Positions 4,480 to 61,000 of a stretch of DNA of 64,000 bases are shown piece by piece (positions within the stretch are counted from its first letter, which is position 1; every line of letters begins with the position of its first letter). The DNA lies in contig NC_043013.1 of assembly GCF_006345805.1 (NCBI RefSeq), forward strand, positions 29,078,001 to 29,142,000, in the 5' to 3' direction. The notes under the pieces were generated by a model, which was given only the letters and a program-made list of their open reading frames with translations, ran no database searches and was not told the origin of the DNA. A program made the translations under genes and the position numbers. Source of the stretch: Octopus sinensis (taxonomy: Eukaryota).

Positions 4480-6509
4480 TTAAGGCAGTGAGTTGGCAGA
4501 ATTGTTAACACACCAGGTAAAATCTGATTTGAAATTTTGCTGCAGTTGACTTTGCTTTTCATCCTTTCAGCTGAGCACTGGGGTCAATGCTATTGATATA
4601 CATTCTCCTTTGAAATTGCTGGCCTTGTGCCAAAATTTGAAACCATATTTACAAACTTTTAGTAGTTTCCTTTCTGTTATTGTTTTACTTTTATTTTCAT
4701 AAATGAAAGGAAAAAAAATCTAGGTTAATATCTTTTCAACTCTAGGCAAAAGGCCTGAAATTTTTGGAGAGGGGGGCCAGCTGATTAGTATGACCCCAGT
4801 ACACAACTGGTACTTAATTTATCAACCCCGAAAGGATGAAAGGCAGAGTCAACCTTGGCGGAATCTAATCTAGGTTAATATGTTTTCTACTTTAGGCACA
4901 AGGCCCAAAAGTTTTAGGGGTGGGGTAGTAGTCAATTAGATTGACCCAAGTACACAACTGGTACTTAATTTATCAACCCTGGAAAGATGAAAGGCAAAGT
5001 TGAGTTCGATGGAATTTAATCTAGGTTAATATCACTGTAGCAATGGTGTAAGTACTTTGAGAAGACGTGAAAGCAAAATTATGTAAACTCATGAAGCTCT
5101 TTTTTTCTGTTTATAGTGTTTACAATGGAGAACTGTATGATTGCAACTAGGTAGACTGTGCCAATTGGAATTAAATGTTGTTTTGTTAATTCAGTTAACA
5201 CTGGTGAGGAAAAGATACGAACCATTAACCTTTCAGGCAAGCTGAGAAAAGGCAGCGAGCTGGCAGTAACCTCAGCACGCCGGGCGAAATGCTTAGCAGT
5301 ATTTCTTCTGCTGTTATGTTCTGAGTTCAAATTCTGCCAAGGTCGACTTTGCCTTTCATCCTTTCGGGGTCGATAAATCAAGTACCAGTTACGCACTGGG
5401 GTCAATGTAATCGACTTAATCCCTTTGTCCTTGTCTGCATCAACAGTTTGCATATTATCTAATTAAGTTTCATGCTGCTAATTATTTGAGATATTTTTCT
5501 TTAAGGTAGTGAGATGGCAGAATCATTAACATGCTGGACAAACTGTTTAGTGGCATTTTGTCTGTCCTTACCTTCTGAGTTCAAATTCCACTGTGGTCGA
5601 TTTTCCTTTTCTTCCTTTTAGGGTCAATAGAACAAACACTACTTGAGCATTGGTGTCAGTGTAACTGACCAGCCCCTCCCCACAAATTTCAAGCTTTTTA
5701 CCTATAGCAGAAAGGAATTATTAAAACATTTTTTTGCTTTTATCTTCTATGTAATTAATTGTTTTATTTGTTTTGTTTTGTGTTGTTTTAGTGTTGAATT
5801 TACCTTGGTTAAATTGATGTTTGTTTTTTTTGTTGTTTCCTTTAGTTTTGTTTTGTTGTCTGTGATGAATGAATTCTGTCCAGGGAAAAACAGTCTGTGA
5901 TCACACGATATTCAGATAATTTTGTGATATATTACACATTTAAGGAGGTTTTTTTTATTGTATGGTTCAACTAGATGGACCCCCCCATCACTCTGTCTCT
6001 GTCTCTGTCTCTGTCTCAGTCTCACACATATACACACACTCAAGGTTTTGTTCATGCCCCAAATAAATTGAGAGATAGGTAGATAGAGAGAGAGAGAGAG
6101 AGAGTGAAATTTCTGTTTTACCCATCTGGTGTGTAATTTATAGATACAGGAAAGCTTGGAGGGAGCAGACGTCTGCAATGAATGTGATGGAAACCCCCAA
6201 AAACCCCTCCTATCTTATTAGTATTACCACTGCCACCACCACCACACTACTATTGATGATAATAAATTGAATTAGAAAAAAGACTAATTTTTTTTTTGTT
6301 TGGAATTGCATGCATTTCAATCGAGTCTGTTGAAAGAAATTTGTTTTGTAAGTCATATGAATTGTTATAATATACCGATACCCTCCACCCCCCTATTATT
6401 TATTTATGAAGTGGAATAAAATGATGTTCTGATGGTCAAAATGATGAATAGTTGCACATGTTTCTGAGTGTTTTATTATTGTTGTAGGGATTACAAGAAA
6501 GTGTGTGTG

Positions 6510-18750: not shown

Positions 18751-20800
18751 TTTTTCCTCTCTAGTTTCAGCTCAGAGCTGCGGCCATGCTGATGCTCTGC
18801 CGTTTTGCTACTCTGTTATTATTAAGAGCCTCCTCTAATATGTGGCATTTGGTGAAGAATGGAGTTTGATATAGCTACCCTCATTTGCACCTCAGGTTCA
18901 TCTGGGACTCTCGACAGGAAGAGGTCCAGCTTTGATTTTAAAACCCCTACTTCTACTTTGTGCAAGTTCCTCAGACTCTTTGGGAGAACATTAAAAATCT
19001 GTGGGCCCTTGTTACCCAGGCTGTTGCAGTAACTGGTCCTGCAGCGTAATGGCATTGCTGGGATCTTTGGCACTATGCAGTGTCGTCTTGTTCTGGCATT
19101 GGTGTAGCTTTCAATTCCAAAATTTGGCACAATTCCTTCCAGGATCTTCCAGATATATATTACTGCATACCTCTCCCGTCTTCTCTCCAGGGAGTAGAGT
19201 CTTAGCTCTTTCAACCTTTCCCAGTAGTTGAGCTGTTGCAAAGAGACGATCTTCTTTGTGAATCTTCTCTGGATTGCTTCAAGGTCCGCTGTTAATTTCA
19301 CACTGGTCTGTGACCATAGCTGTGAGCAGTAACCCAGGCGGCTGAGGACGAATGTCCGCCAGAGGACCATCATGGTTTTCTTATCTCTGGTTCTGAATGT
19401 TCTTAGGATCCACCTAGTCAGTCGTTTGCACTTTGTCGCCATCCTGGTAATGTGCACTTGGAAAGAAGTATCATCACGGTGAGCTAGCAGAAACGTTAGC
19501 ACGCCGGGCGAAATGCTTAGCAGTATTTCGTTTGCTGATACGTTCTGAGTTCAAATCCCGCCGAGGTCGACTTTGCCTTTCATCCTTTCGGGGTCGATTA
19601 AATAGGTACCAGTTACGCACTGGGTCGATATAATCGACTTAATCCGTTTGTCTGTCCTTGTTTGTCCCCTCTGTGTGTAGCCCCCTGTGGGCAGTAAAGA
19701 AATAGGTATCATCACTCATGTCGATACCCAGGTCCCTCACTGACTTAGGCTCTGGGATTGAAATTCCCTGTGGGCCGGTGTACCCTGTAAGTTTCATATT
19801 CAGTTTTGGATGCTGGTAGCGCAGGGCTTGGAATTTTTCAGCATTAAGCTGCATATTATTATCCTCAGCCCATCTGTACATTGAGTCCAACTCCTGTTGC
19901 AGGTATGCAACATCGCTGGGGTTCTGTATTCTCTGCGAGACTTTCGTATCATCTGCATAGCTTGCCAGAGTGGCTATCCAGGCATTTGAGGGCATATCTG
20001 AGAGGGCCACTATATATAGCAGTGGTCCCAAGATAGTGCCCTGTGGAACACCGCTCACTATTTGTGTGTTCATAGAGGTGGTTCAATTAGCCACTACTGC
20101 AGGAAGTCATGTAACCACTCTCCAAGTTTTCCAGCTATGCCAAGGTCACGCAGTTTGTGGCATATCATATCATGATCCACCTTGTCAAAAGCGTTGGCAA
20201 AATCAAGGTATATTACGTCCACATTTGATTTGCTGAGTAACTGCCTCAATACCCAGTCATAATGTTGTAAGAGCTGGGTCAGGCAGCTCCTACCTGGTCG
20301 AAAACCATGCTGGGTATCACTCAGCAAGTTATTTTCTTCAAGGAATGCGATTAGTTTCCCTCTGACTATCCGTTCCATGACTTTGCTGATGTGTAAAGTC
20401 AAAGAGATAGGCCTATAGTTTTTGGCATCTGCTCTACTTCTCCCTTTATGTCTTGGGCATATTATTCCCTCCTTCTACTTGCTAGGCAGTTTGCCATTTG
20501 CAAGAAAGCTCTGGAAGAGAATCTGGAGGGGTTTTGCCTGGGCATGTTTACACGATTTGAAGAGGATTACTGGGAAACCGTCAGGACCAGCAGTTGAGAT
20601 TGTGTCCACTTCATCTATGGCTAGTAGTACATCTTCTTCGCTAATGTCAATGTATTCTATTGTATCTGCCTCGCTGGTTATAGCTGAGGCAACAAAGAAG
20701 TCCACTGGTTCGTTCACTTGTCTGTGTTCCGACGGGGTGGTAAAGACACTTTTGAATTGGTCATTTAGTATCTCACTGATCTTAGTTGGACTGCTAACCT
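18747..20800 (-). mobile_element. 5'-truncated CR1-group LINE (RT domain and C-terminus), disabled
   Basis: Motifs AGPDG, QHGFRPGRSC, IYLDFANAFDKVDH, GVPQGTILGPLL, YADDTK, YWERLKELRLYSLERRRERY; internal deletions and a SINE insertion. Confidence 0.9.
19478..19705 (+). mobile_element. Young SINE inserted in the CR1 ORF
   Basis: Perfect 10-bp TSD GTATCATCAC at 19468-19477 and 19706-19715. Confidence 0.92.
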
Positions 20801-22585: not shown

Positions 22586-22926
22586 TACACATTTCCTTTT
22601 CTCTATGCCAAATTACTATGTCAGGTCAATTATGTTAACTTTTTATTGAGGCTTTCACAAAGGCATTTCACCAGTACTCTTTTTTATTATGAGTGACTAT
22701 GGCTTCTACCATACTGTAGGTTTTTATTTCTTTAGCCTCAAGGTTCCTTCCGACGGATCTAGTTATAGAGTCTCCTCGCTACAACATCATGTCTTATCAT
22801 GTACAATTGTGGAAATCAGCTGCCCAGCGGATGTTAACATAAAGGTAAAGATCAGCGAAATCTATAGCTACTCTATCCAGATTACAACTTCAGGTTTATA
22901 CCTATAATTATTAAGACTCTGGGATA

Positions 22927-23025
22927 TAGGCGCAGGAGTGGCTGTTTGGTAAGTAGCTGCTAACCAACCACATGGTTCCGGGTTCAGTCCCACTGCGTGG
23001 CATCTTGGGCAAGTGTCTTCTGCTA
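22927..23025 (+). mobile_element. CORE-like tRNA SINE (OK-type), cut by the assembly gap
   Basis: GGCGCAGGAGTGGCTG..GGTTCAGTCCCACTGCGTGGCATCTTGGGCAAGT; other copies at about 26807, 33975, 45090, 53445 (+) and 33292, 39160, 55418, 56158, 61260 (-). Confidence 0.8.
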
Positions 23026-23573: not shown

Positions 23574-23645
<72 letters not shown>

Positions 23646-23815
23646 TCTTCCTCGTCTAGGCCAAAAAGGCCCTCTTCGTTTGTTTTCTTGTTTGTTTTTA
23701 TTTCTCGTATTGTATTTTTTGTAATTGTATTTTTATTTTGTATTTTATTTTGTAATTATATTTGTATCGTTTTTACGCCCTGTTTGTGTCACATTTTTTT
23801 CTTTCCTTGTTTTTA

Positions 23816-23932
23816 CCCCTCTGCGAAGAATTTTATTTAATTCTTTCGCAGGAAGGGCTAGTTCGACGAGTCGTGTTCTGTCCTCACCTTCGAAACACGC
23901 TGGAGTTGAACTAGGGACAGCTGATGAAGGGG
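23816..23932 (+). ncRNA. Candidate pseudoknotted (strand-permuted) hammerhead ribozyme, copy 1
   Basis: CGUGU-U-CUGUCC (23872-83), CCUUC-GAAA-CACG (23887-99), GGACAG-CUGAUGA-AGGGG (23915-32); helices I and III pair perfectly. Confidence 0.7.
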
Positions 23933-24242
23933 ATTTTTCCTTGTGTAGTTTGTCTTGTACTCTGTTTTTTCGTTGTAAAAAAATGGTCAGTTCCATGCTT
24001 GTTTTTACGTTTTCGTTTCTCGTTGAGTTCTACGTCTATTTGTGGTGTCCTGTACTCACGTATATATATTTATATATGCATGTATGTATACATATATATG
24101 TGTATGCATATATTTATTATTACACTATTGTATGACTGAGCGCCCTCGCGCCGATTCGATTCGTTTCGTTTCGTTTCGTTTCTTCTTCCAAGTCACAGTA
24201 TTATATATATATATATATATATATATGAACCATTCGAAATAT

Positions 24243-26802: not shown

Positions 26803-27055
26803 GCATAGGCGTAGGAGTGGCTGTGTGGTAAGTAGCTTGCTTACGAACCACATGGTTCCAGGTTCAGTCCCACTGCGTGGCACCTTGGGCAAGTGTTTTC
26901 TGCTATAGCCTCGGGTCAACCAAAGCCTTGTGAGTGGATTTGGTGGACGGAAACTGAAAGAAACCCGTCGTATATATGTATATATATATATATATGTGAT
27001 GCTGGTGTGGTTACGTTCCCGTAAAAGGGACCGATAGAATAAGTACTAGGCTTAA

Positions 27056-30931: not shown

Positions 30932-31594
30932 ACCTCCATCGAGACTATGACCTCCATCGGAGTCGTGCAAGCAGTCGGCAGTTAATCCAGTTAATCCTCT
31001 CTTACTTTGGTATCAGACTTGGCTTGCGAGAAGCTATAGACCATAGTCTGCCGAGCACCGTCTTCTGTCTGAGATAGTGTGTTTGGCAAGCCGTTGTTTT
31101 TTCTGCCTTGTCGACGTCAAATGCCTCCAAGTAAAGCAATAGATTTTGTAAGTCTTATCCATTATATTCTTCCTGTATACAGATAGGATTAATGATTGAT
31201 GGAAAAATATTTATGAATACAAAGCCAAAGAACTAGCTCTATTCATTACTCTAGATTACAGAAGGAATAGATAGTTAATTTGGCATAGCACGCTAACATC
31301 AAGAATACAGCTCGTAGTGGGAATTAAGGTTTTATGAAATAACATGGTTGACTACGAGGCAACAAAGGTGTCACTGTATGTTCAATCCATCTTCCAGAAA
31401 TAGCAACCGAATCTCCCTCAAACCTCAACTACTGCCTTAAAAAAGGAGGAACTCCTTAATGTTGTCATGGATATACTTCTCTTGATAGAAATGCGAAAGG
31501 TGTGACGGTAATTGGTGAAATGAATTTGATCATCACATTTGATGATAGATATATATAAAAATAACGTTAACAACAGAAAAAGAAAAAAATTGCA

Positions 31595-32011
31595 GGAGAG
31601 GTTGTGTGGTAAGTAGCTTGCTTACCAACCACATGGTTCTGGGTTCAGTCCCACTGCGTAGCACCTTGGGAAAGTGTCTTCTACTATAACCTCGGGCCGA
31701 CAAAAGCCCTATGAGTAGATTTGGTAGACGGAAACTGAAAGAAGCTCGTCGTATATATGTACATATATATATGTATATGTATGTGTGTGTATATGTTTGC
31801 GTGTCTGTGTTTGTTCCCTCAACATCGCTTGACAACCGATGCTAGTGTGTTTATGTCCCCGTCACTTAGCGGTTCGGCAAAAGAGACCGATAGAATAAGT
31901 ACTAGGCTTACAAAGAATAAGTCCTGGGGTCGGTTTGCTCGGCTAAAGGCGGTGCTCCAGCATGGCCGCAGTAAAATGACTGAAACAAGTAAAAGAGTAA
32001 AAGAGTAAAAG
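31595..32011 (+). mobile_element. Full-length OK-type SINE with (TAAAAGAG)n tail
   Basis: tRNA-like head, CCTTGGG-AAGT CORE-like block, internal TG/TA repeat, LINE-like tail. Confidence 0.85.
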
Positions 32012-34496: not shown

Positions 34497-37400
34497 ATTG
34501 TTGGCATCCTTTTTGTCTCGGGAGACAATGGAGTTGCGCATAAAATAGTCTAGTCCGGCTTTTACATTTCATGTCCTGATGCATTTCCTGCTGTGGCTGT
34601 GTAGTCTTATCCTGGACAAGCACTCCCTCTGGCAGGTACCGCAAATGTAGCGAAGACTGTTCCTGGCTGGTTGTAATGTCATAGTTTCTTGTTGACGTCT
34701 TTTCTTGTCTTTCCATTTCTCCTCTCTTTCTCTCTCTCTCTCTCTCTGTCACTCCTTTGTATTCCCTCTTTTACGGTACGTCGCCAATCTCCACGGTTGC
34801 TGGCAATTGCTTCCCAACCGCTAATATTGATGTTGCAAGCCTTCATGTCCTTTTTGCAAACATCATTGTTACGTAAGAACGGTCTACCCACAGACCTAGT
34901 ACTCCTAGCAAGCTCTCCGTAGAGTATCTCCTTGGGGATTCTGCCATCTTTCATACGGCTAACATGCCCAAGCCATCTCATACGTCTTTGTGTGTGGAGT
35001 GCAAACATGCTTGGTATTCCTGCTTGCTTGAGGACATCTTTGTTGGGGATATGATTCTGCCATTTGATGCGAAGGATTTTTCGGAGGCAGCGCAGGTGAA
35101 AGATGTTTAAGCGACGCTCTTGGCGTGTGCATAGCGTCCAAGTCTCACTTCCATACAGTAGAGTGCTAAGTACACATGCCTGGTAGATCTTAATTTTCGT
35201 GGTCTTGGTCAGCTTATTGTTGTCCCATGCCCGTTTGGAGAGTTGGGCCATCGCAGCAGCTGCCTTGCCAATGCGTATATTGAGCTCAGCGTTAAGGGAT
35301 AGGTTGTAGGTGACGGTAGAGCCAAGATAGGTAAACTTCTCCACCTCCTGTAATCTGTGGTCTCCAATATGTATGTTTGGGATGTCCGATGTAGCCTGAC
35401 CCATGATGTTGGTCTTTTTAAGGCTGATAGCTAAGCCAAAGTCGTTACATGCTTGCTCAAAACAGTTAATGAGCCTTTGGAGGGCTTCTGTGTGTGATAC
35501 CAGAGCGGCATCATCAGCAAATAGCATCTCCTTGATCAGGACGTTTCTGATTTTGGTCTTGGCACGCAGGCGCGAGAGATTGAACAGTTTCCCGTCACTT
35601 CTACTGTGCAGAAACACTCTATCATCTGATGTCTGAAAGGCATGTGAGAGCAAGAGCGAGAAGAAAATGCCAAATAATGTAGGAGCGAGGACACAACCTT
35701 GCTTTACCCCGTTTTTTATTTGGAAGGCGACTGATGTTGAACCATTGTGCTGTATGGTGACTTGCATATCATCATGGAAAGACTTGATGATCCTCAGCAG
35801 CTTTGGTGGACATCCGATTTTTTGGAGCAGGATGAAGAGGCCTTTTCTACTTACCGAGTCAAAGGCCTTTGTTAGATCAATGAAGGCCATATATAATGGC
35901 ATTTTCTGCTCTCTGAACTTCTCCTGAAGTTGGCGTATGGAGAATATCATATCAATAGTTGATCTGCTTCTTCTAAAGCCACACTGCGATTCCGGATAGA
36001 TTCGAGAAGCAAGTAGTTGTAGCCTGGCCAGGATAACGCGAGCAAAGGTCTTTCCAACAGTGCTTAGAAGAGATATTCCACGGAAATTGTTACAATCACC
36101 ACGGTCACCTTTGTTTTTGTAAAGCGTAATGATGTTAGCATCTCGCATATCCTGAGGGACTGTACCCTCTTCCCAGCACTGACACAGAAGCTCATGAAGG
36201 TGCCGAAGCAGGATGGTGTTTTTGCCGGCTTTGGTGATCTCTGAGGGGATGCCGTCTTTTCCCGGAACCTTGTTTCTTGCTAGGGAGTCAATAGCCTTGG
36301 TGAGCTCTGCTATAGATGGCGGACTGTCAAGTTCGCACATGACTGGCAAGATCTTGACACTCTCGATTGCAGCCTCAGCTACTGTAGTATCCCGTGAGTA
36401 GAGATCCTGGTAGTGCTCCACACATCTATCCATTTGCTTGTTTTGATCTCCAGTAGTTGATTTCAGAGGGGCTGACTTGGTTGCGGATGGACCGAGGGCC
36501 TTCTTCAAACCGGCATACATCCCACGGGTGTCGCCCCTGTCAGCAGCCGACTGGATACTCTGACAGATTTCTTGCCAATACCTATTTGCACAGCATCTGG
36601 CTGTCAGTTGGGGTTTTATTTCTTGCCTTTCTGAGTTCTTCGAGTGACTTTGTAGAAGAATCACTCTTGTATTACATCAGAGCTGCACGCTTTGCTTCGA
36701 TAATTGGCTCCAGCTCTGAGAGCCCAGCATTGAACCAATCTGGGTTTTGCCTTTCTCTCATGCCGAAAGTATCAATTGATGTGGTATACAAAGCTTCCCC
36801 GATATAATTCCACCTACTTTCAGCAGAGGAGGTTGGGCAGCTACTGAGGGCAACCTTGATAGAAGCAGCAAAACATTTTCGCAGTGTAGGGTCCGAGGTT
36901 CTGGCAGTGTTAATGCGTGGTCGGCCCACTTTCTTGGAGCGATGGACTTTTTTAGGCAGAATCCTCACCCTACTTCTAATTAGTGAGTGGTCTGTGTCAC
37001 AATCCGCACCGTGGTAACTGCGGGTCAATAGAACAGAATTAAAAAAGGATCTCCGTGTAATGATGAGATTCAGCTGATGCCAGTGGTGAGATCTTGGATG
37101 TCTCCAAGATGCCTTGTGGGATGGCTTGTTGGTAAAGAATGTGTTTGTGACGCACAGGTTATGGTATGTGCAGAATTCGAGTAGTCTCTGACCATTGTCA
37201 TTCATGTTGCCAATACCAAAGTGTCCAACACAAATGGGCCACGAATCATGGTCAGATCCCACGCGAGCGTTAAAATCCCATAGAAGGTAGATATTTTCAG
37301 TTGTTGGTAGAGTTTTTATGACACAGTTGAGATCTTTGTAGAACTGGACCTTGGTCGCCTCTGAGCTGTAGAGAGTGGGAGCATAGATGCTGAGTAGATG

Positions 37401-38352
37401 TACTGAGCCAGAAGAAGTCGAGAGGCGCAGTGAGAAGATACGCTCAGTGCCTCCTGATGGTGGTTCTATTGAGGAGAGTAATGATTTTCTCACTGCAAAG
37501 CCAACGCCATGCTGACGAGGTTCTTCTGGATCGCTTCCCTGCCAAAAGAAGGTGAAATCCTGTTCTTTGAGTTTGCCGTTTGAGGGAAGTCTTGTCTCCT
37601 GTAGCCCAGCAATCTCTATATTAAGCCTCTTTAGTTCACGGTCAATGATGGCCGTTTTCCTTGTGTCTTCAACCCTGAGTAGATCATCAGATATTCCAGG
37701 GCACATGGTCCTGACATTCCAGCTTGTCAACCGCAGGACTGGTGGTTTCTTGTCTTTTAGTTGTTTGCCTGGTGCAGAGGTTGCAGGCCGCTTTTCAAGT
37801 CATACTCTTAGCTCCAAGCACCCAATGAAGCAGGCGGCCTGTAGCGGATCAGCACCTTATTAACTGGGGGCTTCCCAGCTTGAGGTGGGCAGTAGCTAAC
37901 CAATAGGACACGGAGGTCCCTCCCACCGTCAGAGGTAACCCGTAGCGCCCATATTTTACGCTAATCTGAATGGACTAATCACTCGTGACTGTCACCTTCC
38001 GTGTTGTTTCTGCAGCTTTTTACAGCAGCACTGAAGTGTCCTCTCCAGTTTTGCGCAGGTCTGGGTTAGAGATAAGAAAGTCCTGGGTAGCCCAATTGTC
38101 AGGTTTCCTCTCTCGATCTTGCTGATGTAGTCCAAAGGAGTGCAGAGCATTACGTTTGGCACCAGCTTGGTTGCAGGAGCTGCCGGAAGAGTGTCGAGTC
38201 GAACACTAAACCACCTTCGGATTTCTTTGAAGGTTGTCTCCTTTCCGTAACCCTGGATAGGGGCCCATACTGGGGACTGTCAGCCGGAACCAGCTGAGCC
38301 CGGAACTCATGTCAGGCAGGGTCGTCACTCCCTGAAGTAGTGAAGAAGTTCG
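34497..38352 (-). mobile_element. Near-full-length RTE-clade LINE (~3.85 kb) inserted in (TA)n
   Basis: 5' UTR about 37800-38352, then APE endonuclease, RT and zinc finger; 3' stem-loop TTGTCTC-CC-GAGACAA..GGATGCCAA. Confidence 0.93.
34569..37797 (-). pseudogene. RTE APE-endonuclease/reverse-transcriptase ORF with one stop and two frameshifts
   Basis: SWNVRT, LQETR, IYAPT, DFNARVG, DTDHSL; AFIDLTKAFDSV, GVKQGCVLAPTLF, LFADD, FTYLGS. Stop at 36672-74; frameshifts at about 36612 and 34735. Confidence 0.92.
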
Positions 38353-39159: not shown

Positions 39160-39599
39160 TCGGACAAATTGACCCCTCGACTTATGCTTTGTAAACCTGG
39201 TACTTATTCTACCGGTCTCTTTTGCCGGATCGCTAAGTTACGGGAACGTAAACACACCAATATTGGTTGTCAAGCGATGGTGGGGGACAAACACAGGCAC
39301 AAACATACAAATATATACATATGTATATACGACGGGATTCTTTCAGTTTTCGTCTACCAAATCCACTTACAAGGCTTTGGTCGGTCCGAGGCTATAGTAG
39401 AAGACACTTGCCCGAGGTGCCACGCAAAGGGCCTAAAACCCGAACCATGTGGTTGGGAAGCAAGCTTCTTACCACACAGCCACGCCTGCGGCTATATATA
39501 TATATATATATATATATACATACATACATATGTAAATATATATATATATGTATACATACGCACACACACATATATGTGTGTGTGTGTAAGCGTATTTAT

Positions 39600-45646: not shown

Positions 45647-45805
45647 GCAACATCGAAAAATACCTTAGAAATGAGAACCCAGGTTCAAAATCTCCCCAAG
45701 ACACCTGATGAAGGCTGGAGGGTGTATCAGCCAAAACGTTGTGTTAGCAACAAACAAGATGAGGACAAATATCCGTCAATTGTAAATAAACTAAATAATG
45801 TATGT
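45507..45805 (+). mobile_element. tRNA-headed SINE with (AAT)n spacer and HHR-bearing tail
   Basis: A box TGGCGTAGTAG, B box AGTTCGATTCC; HHR at 45700-45745. Confidence 0.7.
45700..45745 (+). ncRNA. Minimal type I hammerhead (GAAA mutated to AAAA)
   Basis: ACAC-CUGAUGA-A-GGCUG..CAGCC-AAAA-CG-UU-GUGU. Confidence 0.7.
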
Positions 45806-53976: not shown

Positions 53977-55612
53977 TTTCCGAGCTAGGATAGTAAGCAG
54001 TACAAAGCACACTGAATAATCAGCTGGAAGATGCGTCCTTCCGGGGTTAAAATAATTGTATCATCTGTTCTTATAGAACACCCACGTTTAGGTGGCGATA
54101 AACATTACTTCGAAATATAATCCCTGATGTACGAAAAGATGGGGCAGTCACAACTGGAACGTCTCTTATATATCTGTGCAATTAGTGCTTACATGAGGGT
54201 GAAACGTTCATGAACAAGCAAGATTATTTTTTGTAGGTAGACACAGAAGACAGCATCAAATGCATTAGCGTTTCGTGAAAGAACTTTATTGAAAGTGCCA
54301 TCTCGCGATAGTTTGAAAATCGCTGATAATATTTTAAATGCTTTAATCAACTCGATAGCTTCTCAGAAAAATTTAATTTTCTGCATATAGCTGTTGCTCT
54401 TTATCAAACAAATACACGTTTTCATATGGAGCCAGCGAGACAGTTTTTTTAAGTGTTCGCTTGCTCGACTTGTTTGATATAACACCCAGATCTCTCTTAG
54501 GTCACACGTTATCATCTTAAAATTGTAAAGGACACGTTACATAATGTAGTCTTAAATACACAATGTTAAAATTAGACAAAAGCATTGAAGTACTTTTGAT
54601 CACACTTCTGTCCAGTTTCAGGTTGACCAAGGGCTAAACAACAATAAGCACCGCCGCCGGCACCTTTGTCCAGAAGCGTTCGCTTCAAATCTTAATTTAT
54701 GTAAATCTTACAGGAGAGGATAATACCTATGTGTAATCAAACGAAATCGATATATTCTTCAGAAGAAGACCAAGTGAGAGGGAGATTTATATATTGAACG
54801 ATAATCCAAGCTGAGATTGACAGATGTAAAAATGTTTGGAATTCTGAGATATTGAAATAGGAAGTCTAGTCTTTTATTTATTCTTTTGAAAGTATGCTAT
54901 GAATAATAACTGTTGGAACGTTCAATCGTTGGCACGCCGGGTAAAATGTTGAGCGGCATTTCGTCCGTCTTTACGTTCTGAGTTCAAATTCTACCGAAGT
55001 CCACTTTGCTTTTCATCCTTTTGGGGGTTGAAAAAATAAGTACCAGTTGAGTGTTGGTGGGTGGGTGATGTCAAAGTATTCGACTTAACCTCTCCTCTGA
55101 AACTGCTAATATTGTGGCAAAATTTGAAACCAATATGGGACAAATAAAAATATGATGGCGTTTAAATTAAAAATATGACAATTAAAAATATGATGTTAAT
55201 CAGTTCTCTCTGTCTTTCTTTCTTTGTCTCTCTCCTCCTATTTCTCTCTGTCTGTCTGTCTCTCGCTCGTTCGCTCTGTATTCCTGATGAATTCTGTAAA
55301 CTTATATATAAGGTGATATTCCATGAGTTGAGTATCATTTTTGAGACTAAGACTCAGAATTTATGTACTGAATGATAGTATCTGTCTGTCTGTCTATCTT
55401 TCTCTCTATCTATCTCTTTTACTCTTCTTCAGTCATCTGATTACGGCCATGTTGGAGCACCGCATTTAGTCGATCAAATCACTCTCAGGACTTATTCTTT
55501 GTAAGCCTAGTACTGATTCTATCGGTCTCTTTTGCCGAACCGCTAAGTTACGGGGACGTAAACACACCAACATCGGTTGTCAAGCGATGGTGGGACAAAC
55601 ACAGACACACAA

Positions 55613-55685
<73 letters not shown>

Positions 55686-55837
55686 AAGGACGCGTTTCTT
55701 TCAGTTTCTGTCTATCAAATCCACTCACATGGCTTTGGTCGGCCCGAGTCTATAGTAGAAGACACTTGCCCAAGGTGCCACGCAGTAGGACTGAACCCGG
55801 AACTACGTGGTTGGGAAGCAAGCTTCTACCACACTGC

Positions 55838-59395: not shown

Positions 59396-59622
59396 GTTGA
59401 AGACAAAGTTTGCGTCCTTTTCTTTATTAGCAGCTAATCATGTAACGCTTATTTAAGCATTAATCTTAATCTATCGTGCGATCCGCTCTGTTGTAAGTAT
59501 CCGCACTTAATATGCATATATGGGTACAGGATGTCAACAACAGTAAACAACATGAAATACGAAAACAAATGAGTTAAATACGCAAATAACGAGAGAAAAA
59601 ATGGGACAAGTAATACAAAGAA

Positions 59623-59752
59623 TGACCCTTCATCAGTTGTCGGCTGTCTAGTCTATCTATTCCCTATTTCGAGCAATCAACGACAGTATGAGTCTTCGAA
59701 GACAGTTGCTCTCATAAATACCAAAATAAGATTTGGGATTTATGGAGGGTCA
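59623..59752 (-). ncRNA. Candidate permuted hammerhead, copy 2 (partly eroded)
   Basis: CUCAU-A-CUGUCG..UUGCUC-GAAA-UAGG..AGACAG-C-CGACAA-CUGAUGA-AGGGUCA. Confidence 0.55.
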
Positions 59753-59978
59753 AAGTTAGGAACAAAAACAGGACAGTGGAGACATACAGGGAAAGCAAAC
59801 GAGGGTCGTTACACCTGAGCGAGGGGAAAATAGTGAACGCTGAGAGAAATATTTCTTTTGAAAAGAGTAAAGATAGAAGAGAGAGATAGGAGACATCCAG
59901 TCCTTAGAATGTCCGTGCAGGAAAGAAAGATGGTCACGTGAGGAAAAGAAAGGTGGAGGATGGTCACGTGTGAGCAAC

Positions 59979-60012
<34 letters not shown>

Positions 60013-60410
60013 AAGAGGGAGAGATAGAGATAGACAGAAAACGGTGAAAGGGAGGGGATTAGAGAGGTGGGGGAGAAAACAGTATAGAGTAGAGTCGCAT
60101 CGAAAATATTAAGATAAACTTACTTGGAAATGGATACGTGGCGTTCAATTAAATAAAAATATAAAAAATATATATAATATATATAATGATATAAATAATG
60201 TATATATATATATGCATATGTACATATGTATATGTAGATACTTATATCTTTACGTTTATGCATATACATATGTGGGCACAGGACTTCACGGAACGTAAAC
60301 AACATAAAAAATGCGAAAACATGAGATACGAAATACGAATATATGGAATATGAACTTTTTTGCAACAACGAAAGTAGCAAATGGAAAGCAAGACAAGTAA
60401 CATAACGAAC

Positions 60411-60539
60411 GACCCTTCATCAGTTGTCGGCTGTTTTTCTTATCCGTATTTCGAGCAATTCAACGACAAGATACACCTTCGATAAAACAGTTGCTCCTGC
60501 AAAACAAATTAAATAAAATTTGGGATTTTGCGGAGGGTC
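60411..60539 (-). ncRNA. Candidate permuted hammerhead, copy 3
   Basis: UGUAU-C-UUGUCG..UUGCUC-GAAA-UACG..AAAACAG-C-CGACAA-CUGAUGA-AGGGUC. Confidence 0.7.
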
Positions 60540-60647
60540 AAAATTGGTAACAAAAACAGGATAGTGAAAACAAACAGGAAGGGCTGTTAAGCCTAAACGA
60601 GATGAAGTGGCGAACGCGAAGAACCAAGCTTGGATAAGAGACAGACG

Positions 60648-61000
60648 ATATTTCGTCTGTCTTTACGCTCTGAGTTCAAATTCTGCCGAGGTCGGCATTG
60701 CCTTTCATCCTTTCGGGGTCGGTTAAATAAGTACCAGCTACGCACTGGGGTCGATATAATCGACTTTATCCGTTTGTCTGTCCTTGTTTGTCCTCTCTGT
60801 GTTTAGCCCCTTGTGGGTAGTAAAGAAATTGGTATTTCGTCTGTCTTTATGTTCTGAGTTCAAATTCCGCCGAGGTCGACATTGCCGTTCATCCTTTCGG
60901 GGTCGATAAATTAAGTACCAGTTGTGTACTGGGATCGATCTAATCGACTGGCCCCTCTCCCAAAGTTTCGGTTCCTTGTGCCTAGATTAGAAAAAAATTA
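60648..61000 (+). mobile_element. SINE with tandemly duplicated body
   Basis: Unit TATTTCGTCTGTCTTTA..GTACCAG.. repeated at about 60650 and 60833. Confidence 0.8.

Follow-up and report, generated by a model that had tools for sequence, protein, structure and literature searches.

A predicted self-cleaving hammerhead ribozyme of the non-circularly permuted S-G-C/C-S-G cycle, carried by a non-autonomous, retrozyme-like repeat, likely lies at 23816–23932 (+) of the window (the whole 64,000-nt stretch of Octopus sinensis contig NC_043013.1 analysed here, positions 29,078,001–29,142,000). Judged from its sequence, helix II would be formed by an upstream strand (c) and the strand before GAAA (c'), and a four-way junction would adjoin the core. 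The S-G-C order and the hammerhead core were confirmed in the letters, and helices I, III, and D stand at the positions at which an earlier note on this DNA had placed them; the circularly permuted C-G-S order of types I, II, and III is not matched. The topology, proposed there as new, had been described as type SGC by Eckert et al. 2023 (PMC10085705), who defined blocks S, G, and C, reported types SGC and CSG, and showed cleavage with mutants. Since the permutation was already known, the novelty claimed for it falls; what appears to be new is its presence in an animal repeat and on such a scale, together with the splitting of block C and the footprint in the genome.

The motif is composed as follows, 5' to 3' on the plus strand. 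Strand a (CCCCU, 23816–23820) pairs with a' (AGGGG, 23928–23932), which closes the ribozyme domain; hairpin b (23821–23851), with an AU-rich loop, is the proposed third arm of the four-way junction, assigned by covariation; strand c (GAAGG, 23852–23856), the proposed G10.1 strand of helix II, has its partner c' at 23887–23891. The 5' strand of helix D, proposed as a stem I–stem II interaction helix, starts 1 nt after c (23858–23867; partner 23905–23914). Block S (23872–23883, seen by covariation) consists of the helix III 5' strand CGUGU (23872–23876; partner ACACG, 23895–23899), with U16.1, of H17, here U at 23877, after which the cut is predicted, and of the helix I 5' strand CUGUCC (23878–23883; partner GGACAG, 23915–23920). 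Block G (23887–23899), reached by a 3-nt linker from helix I, holds c' (CCUUC), GAAA (23892–23895), and the helix III 3' strand. The last segment (23905–23932, by sequence and alignment) holds the 3' strands of helices D and I, CUGAUGA (23921–23927), and a', whose first base is the extra A characteristic of Penelope hammerheads. The core is complete (CUGANGA; GAAA; NUH with U16.1-A15.1; G10.1-C11.1). The whole lies in a solo, 5'-truncated, non-coding copy of the repeat (23640–24226, +; limits by homology to 30 genomic loci), with (TA)n on either side. That current models would miss the motif was borne out, Rfam giving 0 matches at gathering score over the window and (Rfam 15) 0 at E ≤ 10 over 23700–24050.

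Two further copies, quoted in the earlier note with no strand, do exist, both on the minus strand. The copy at 60411–60539 (lineage B; cut predicted between 60470 and 60469) has the same architecture with compensated helices and contains the helices quoted. The copy at 59623–59752, of another lineage-B subfamily, has the quoted helix D, but the quoted helices I and III fail for it: a C-A mismatch at the first helix I pair and one mismatch in helix III indicate that these were the helices of the 60.4-kb copy. The 59.7-kb copy is probably decayed. The two stand in direct tandem, 787 nt apart, in an insertion of one partial and one near-full unit (59510–60620, −; from blast of related loci against the window, 5' limit approximate). 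Their units, of two subfamilies, are 86% identical, compared with 94–99.7% in arrays elsewhere, which suggests template switching or insertion beside an older copy. A covariance model from 34 copies (the three of the window included) matches only those three within the window.

The alignment comprised 34 copies spanning clusters (34 of 130 candidates, plus the window references); invariance of the core was partly imposed by the search patterns, while U16.1 and H17 were not imposed. Over the whole model 87.7% of 1,156 cells are paired and both sides change in 24 of 35 pairs, figures that greatly exceed those of slid registers. Cells paired, and pairs in which both sides change, are, in the same 34 copies: helix I, 92.0%, five of six; helix III, 94.1%, four of five; helix D, 73.4%, six of seven (lineage B shifted by one column; 4–10 bp depending on the subfamily); a:a', 86.1%, two of six, the four pairs nearest the core never covarying; hairpin b, 89.1%, four of six; c:c', 95.9%, three of five. 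The covariation in I, III, and D agrees with the earlier proposal that the motif is under selection. U16.1-A15.1 is found in 34/34; G never occurs at H17, which is C, A, or U; N7 (U in 19, A in 15) is the sole core position that varies between subfamilies. The linker from helix I to c' is 3 nt in 21 of the 34 and 4–6 nt in the rest, and a, b, c, and the core adjoin one another with no unpaired base in between. Hairpin b is part of the minimum-energy folds of both window copies that were folded; single-sequence folding is otherwise weak (z −2.3, −0.5, and −1.3), as is expected of a pseudoknot. On a tree of 13 subfamily consensuses, which cover 130 of 157 copies, all three c:c' compensations and most of the a:a' compensation fall on one branch (lineage B versus the rest), so these changes may be one event.

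Helix II had been read as contiguous, that is, as a' with c'. This is probably wrong, as both strands have better, covarying partners upstream: by sequence, helix II is probably c with c', and a' probably pairs with a, which would place a four-way junction at 9/10.1 and split block C. Watson-Crick pairs fill 159 of 170 cells in c:c' as against 69 of 170 in a':c', and a G-C pair stands next to G12 in c:c' in 33 of 34 copies. The nearest-neighbour energy of a:a' plus c:c' is the lower in 34/34, by a median of 10 kcal/mol without junction or pseudoknot terms. The contiguous helix runs G-C, G-U, G-U/G-C, G-C/U-G and then breaks (4 bp); its single common double change is G-C to U-G, and it has no Watson-Crick to Watson-Crick compensation.

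A plain type-SGC ribozyme whose active helix II is nevertheless a':c', the extra A being bulged, is an unlikely alternative; a and c would then sequester its halves and keep the ribozyme OFF until folding kinetics, a shorter transcript, or a protein released them. The four pairs can form in 12 of the 13 subfamily consensuses, the covariation score of a':c' lies above 500 of 500 shuffles, the invariance of AGGG fits a double constraint, and a need to disable ribozymes is mentioned by Eckert et al. 2023 (PMC10085705); a bulged A with G10.1-C11.1 is also the signature of Penelope hammerheads in the available part of PMC4209133. Covariation and energy nonetheless favour the upstream strand: in addition to the energy deficit in every copy, the second a':c' pair is G-U in 34/34, a slid register pairs more cells (85.9% vs 79.4%), and helix D would no longer match the published stem I–II helix.

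The last point is the main reason for taking the four-way junction as the active fold. Helix D had been described as bridging helices III and I, which is probably mistaken; it probably links helix I to helix II at their distal ends, as the published helix does. As read from the primers in the accessible part of PMC10085705, one strand of the stem I–II helix of SGC-2 immediately precedes I', and the other lies one base downstream of the G10.1 strand; the linker from I to II is 3 nt long. Provided that c is the G10.1 strand, and only then, helix D matches this connectivity and the linkers seen there (I to II', 3 nt; II to D, 1 nt; D to I', 0–1 nt).

With types SGC and CSG the octopus motif shares the order S, G, CUGANGA, all core bases, and a linker of about 3 nt from I to II (here 3–6 nt). 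The published SGC ribozymes are 79–81-nt constructs (up to 104 nt) of metatranscriptomic origin, with helix II contiguous to CUGANGA; the octopus motif differs in the proposed upstream G10.1 strand, in the proposed four-way junction (a, b) at 9/10.1, and in its host, a high-copy animal repeat. In the work of Eckert et al. 2023 (PMC10085705), SGC came from metatranscriptomes alone and CSG from metagenomes; named genomes gave nothing except one weak GCS candidate, and block C was assumed to tolerate no insertion longer than one or two bases. Their SGC descriptors, as given in the accessible part of the paper, require CUGAUGAG or CUGAUGAUG; octopus CUGA(U/A)GA-A-G, compared by eye, fails them, and the motif would be missed because of its extra A. 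An extra base between 9 and 10.1 is on record for Penelope-like element (PLE) ribozymes in the available part of Cervera and de la Pena 2014 (PMC4209133). Hammerhead variants with additional helices also exist (PMC13725137, citing Weinberg et al. 2015); by the description in the accessible part of the citing paper, they share with the octopus motif an added helix at or near the core. Nothing on a helix added at 9/10.1 was found in the parts of PMC10162972 and PMC6765202 that were available, and the literature searched, which left most subscription papers outside, yielded no account of an SGC ribozyme in an animal genome and none of a junction at 9/10.1.

It is about an even chance that the motif represents a seventh natural hammerhead connectivity: a closed S-G-C/C-S-G knot whose RNA ends leave via a new helix at a perfect A9/G10.1 four-way junction, active in the animal germ line, with four helices holding both products, and serving as the self-circularising module of a multi-thousand-copy retrozyme family hidden from type I descriptors.

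Genomic 5' ends of the repeat were examined in relation to G12. Junctions at −6 to −9 were found in 15 of 99 mapped copies (the first 100 core-pattern copies listed, contig C1). To avoid the bias of the core pattern, copies were then anchored on a motif lying some 150 nt further 3', which has 4,978 matches; of the first 100 listed, 93 were mapped, a sample that overlaps the earlier one. Here, 21 of 67 copies at risk end within −16 to −1, an interval picked after the data were seen, against 2.6 expected from the background rate; only two end in the next 48 nt upstream (−17 to −64). The predicted cut lies at −14 in lineages A and C, and their peak is sharply bounded at it. For lineage B (1,160 matches; 68 of the first 70 listed mapped) the interval −18 to −1 was fixed beforehand and held 12 of 63 ends against 5.0 expected (P = 0.004). 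The peak is centred 7–10 nt 3' of the cut and shows no clear shift with the cut between lineages. Such a pile-up just 3' of the predicted cut may be an indirect sign of cleavage in vivo; on the simplest reading, a reverse transcriptase would run off a 5' end made by the ribozyme, with up to about 12 nt lost at joining. A footprint of this kind would offer a way to read ribozyme activity off genome sequence alone.

The same peak could mark a reverse transcriptase stop or a joining hotspot, next to c' or the TCGA palindrome, in a conserved hammerhead-derived RNA that no longer cleaves; we consider this improbable. In both lineages the peak centre does lie close to where c' begins, some inverted junctions are at TTCGAA, and eight of nine predicted Xenopus retrozymes did not cleave in vitro according to the available part of 10.64898/2026.07.22.740005. 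Against it stand U16.1-A15.1 in every copy and an H17 that is never G, neither of them imposed by the patterns, a core that varies at N7 only, and the sharp bound of the A/C peak at the cut; moreover, once c' had been copied, no helix partner would be left to stall the enzyme. Very improbable is a dimer, with helices formed between neighbouring units or between two molecules instead of a monomeric pseudoknot: tandem arrays exist, and minimal PLE hammerheads cleave as dimers (PMC6765202, available part), but helix III here, 4–5 bp long, is no palindrome, the pairing strands all fall inside 120 nt and are spaced by linkers similar to those of monomeric SGC ribozymes, and a second ribozyme stands 600–950 nt away at only 5 of 90 pattern-sampled loci (three distinct places, neighbours overlapping).

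For the preferred reading, the monomeric S-G-C hammerhead with c:c' as helix II, the following mechanism is proposed. One hammerhead of the non-circular cycle would be present per repeat unit. Its upstream strand c would pair with c' before GAAA, and a' (after CUGANGA) with upstream a, so that helices a, b, II, and the core would meet in a four-way junction at the place where Penelope hammerheads carry their bulged extra base; helix D would tie the far ends of helices I and II. A hammerhead core with such helices cuts after H17 and leaves a 2',3'-cyclic phosphate and a 5'-OH. Tandem or read-through transcripts would be cut once per unit, and in the released unit the 3' end (a, b, c, d, III') would re-pair with the 5' end (I, c', III, d', I', a'). 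As the ends of the unit-length RNA would be held by a:a', c:c', D, and III, ligation to a circle would be favoured. The enzyme of an endonuclease-bearing PLE, acting in trans, would prime reverse transcription at (TA)n; linear, cut RNA would give short copies ending near the cut, and uncut or circular RNA would give tandems and copies spanning the ribozyme.

If this is correct, non-circularly permuted hammerheads move from unassigned environmental RNAs into an animal genome, in thousands of copies and at least 13 subfamilies. The block rule by which hammerhead permutations are enumerated would be broken, and ribozymes in other genomes may therefore escape current descriptors; retrozymes would extend beyond type I/III ribozymes.

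The copy number was estimated with the core pattern CGAAA-N22-32-CTGAHGAAGGG over the 2.72-Gb genome, the same pattern reversed serving as control: 4,051 + 4,086 = 8,137 exact matches were obtained, compared with 4 + 9 = 13 for the control. The SGC helices I and III are present in 43 of 59 sampled genomic copies in which 95 nt or more of upstream sequence is retained (55 of 100 overall). Copies were sampled by exact patterns, and more distant subfamilies may be missed. Among chance pattern matches in metagenomes (80 of 119 pattern stretches examined, 73 with enough flank) these two helices are present in one of 73 and the upstream helices (a, b, c) in none of 73. A single metagenome locus (L360:290–443, −) scores with the model (24.6 bits, E 6e-4), probably by chance given the pattern selection.

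The full repeat unit is about 740–830 nt, non-coding, with one hammerhead per unit and solo as well as tandem copies. Units in tandem arrays measure 737, 754, 789, 796, 816, and 833 nt, neighbours being 94–99.7% identical; the GC content of one unit is 37%. No coding frame was recognised among the ORFs listed for the unit, and PLE proteins have no match in the window. The 3' ends are AT-rich internal sites fused to (TA)n, the furthest end motif being reached in 22 of 93. Among 71 truncated copies, 41 are next to a microsatellite and 11 next to an inverted copy. At L067, L109, and L128, copies in inverted orientation meet at or close to the TTCGAA palindrome that spans c' and GAAA. Part of the stretch occurs in 20 sequencing runs under five organism labels, all of them as assembled contigs and none recorded as RNA. 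Contigs assembled from four runs contain pieces of many element variants, and are such as to give no ends, strand, or level. A reading of the repeat 3' end as a splice donor was dropped, GTAAG not being kept across subfamilies.

With animal non-LTR retrozymes (Cervera and de la Pena 2020, PMC7229834; Li et al. 2026, 10.64898/2026.07.22.740005; available parts of both) the repeat shares a non-coding, low-GC unit, a single hammerhead, and solo and tandem copies; its unit length falls within the 51–972 nt reported there for retrozymes. The animal retrozymes described in those parts carry type I hammerheads and were searched for with type I descriptors, whereas the octopus repeat is S-G-C; in the same accounts circular RNA is shown for retrozymes, while for the octopus repeat it is predicted.

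The earlier assignment to a Penelope-like kind of repeat is supported by the marks of insertion: (TA)n targets, 5' truncation, and inverted and tandem copies, all given for PLEs in the available part of Craig et al. (10.1101/2021.04.23.441226). With the PLE pLTR hammerheads, as far as PMC4209133 was available, are shared the extra base at 9/10.1, G10.1-C11.1, (TA)n insertion, 5' truncation, and inverted and tandem copies; the PLE ribozymes differ in being minimal type I with a palindromic helix III, and no RT/endonuclease ORF was found inside the octopus unit. Intact 782-aa ORFs of RT+GIY-YIG-like kind are present in the genome; those of L258, L261, and L267 (628–2976, coding strand) are Penelope/Neptune-like, with many copies 92–95% identical, and no clear hammerhead was found 3' of them. 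The motif was found 3' of the ORF in 0 of 50 PLE loci (the 30 best matches and 20 weaker ones, relatives of one RT query found beside a repeat copy), nor was an RT + GIY-YIG ORF joined to the ribozyme repeat found. PLE fragments occur at 10 of the 252 element loci; as far as these were checked, no fragment runs on into the unit. In view of the 0/50 and of the (TA)n that separates PLE fragments from the element, we infer mobilisation in trans by a PLE. At L100/L197 and at L183 a PLE endonuclease end is closely followed on its 3' side by the element, in the same orientation and with (TA)n between; the two could have been inserted together or could favour the same targets. In L294 and L295, from a more distant PLE family, a minimal hammerhead-like motif that begins with UUGAAGA stands about 850 nt downstream of the RT match.

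Other repeats were noted in the window. A type I minimal Penelope-style hammerhead (CUGAUGA-A-GGCUGG...CAGCC) with a damaged GAAA lies at 45695–45745 (+); locus L047 holds an intact relative. A dispersed SINE-like repeat of about 150–250 nt (families D14/D17), which we take to resemble an octopus SINE, has 17 window copies, e.g. 5257–5400, 60606–60749, and 60790–60933. A second dispersed repeat is found at 22924–23025, 26805–26998, 31592–31984, 39291–39554, and 55428–55827, and often adjoins the ribozyme element at other loci. LINE reverse transcriptase-like fragments, recognised by eye only, lie at about 18900–19900 and 35400–37700 (−).
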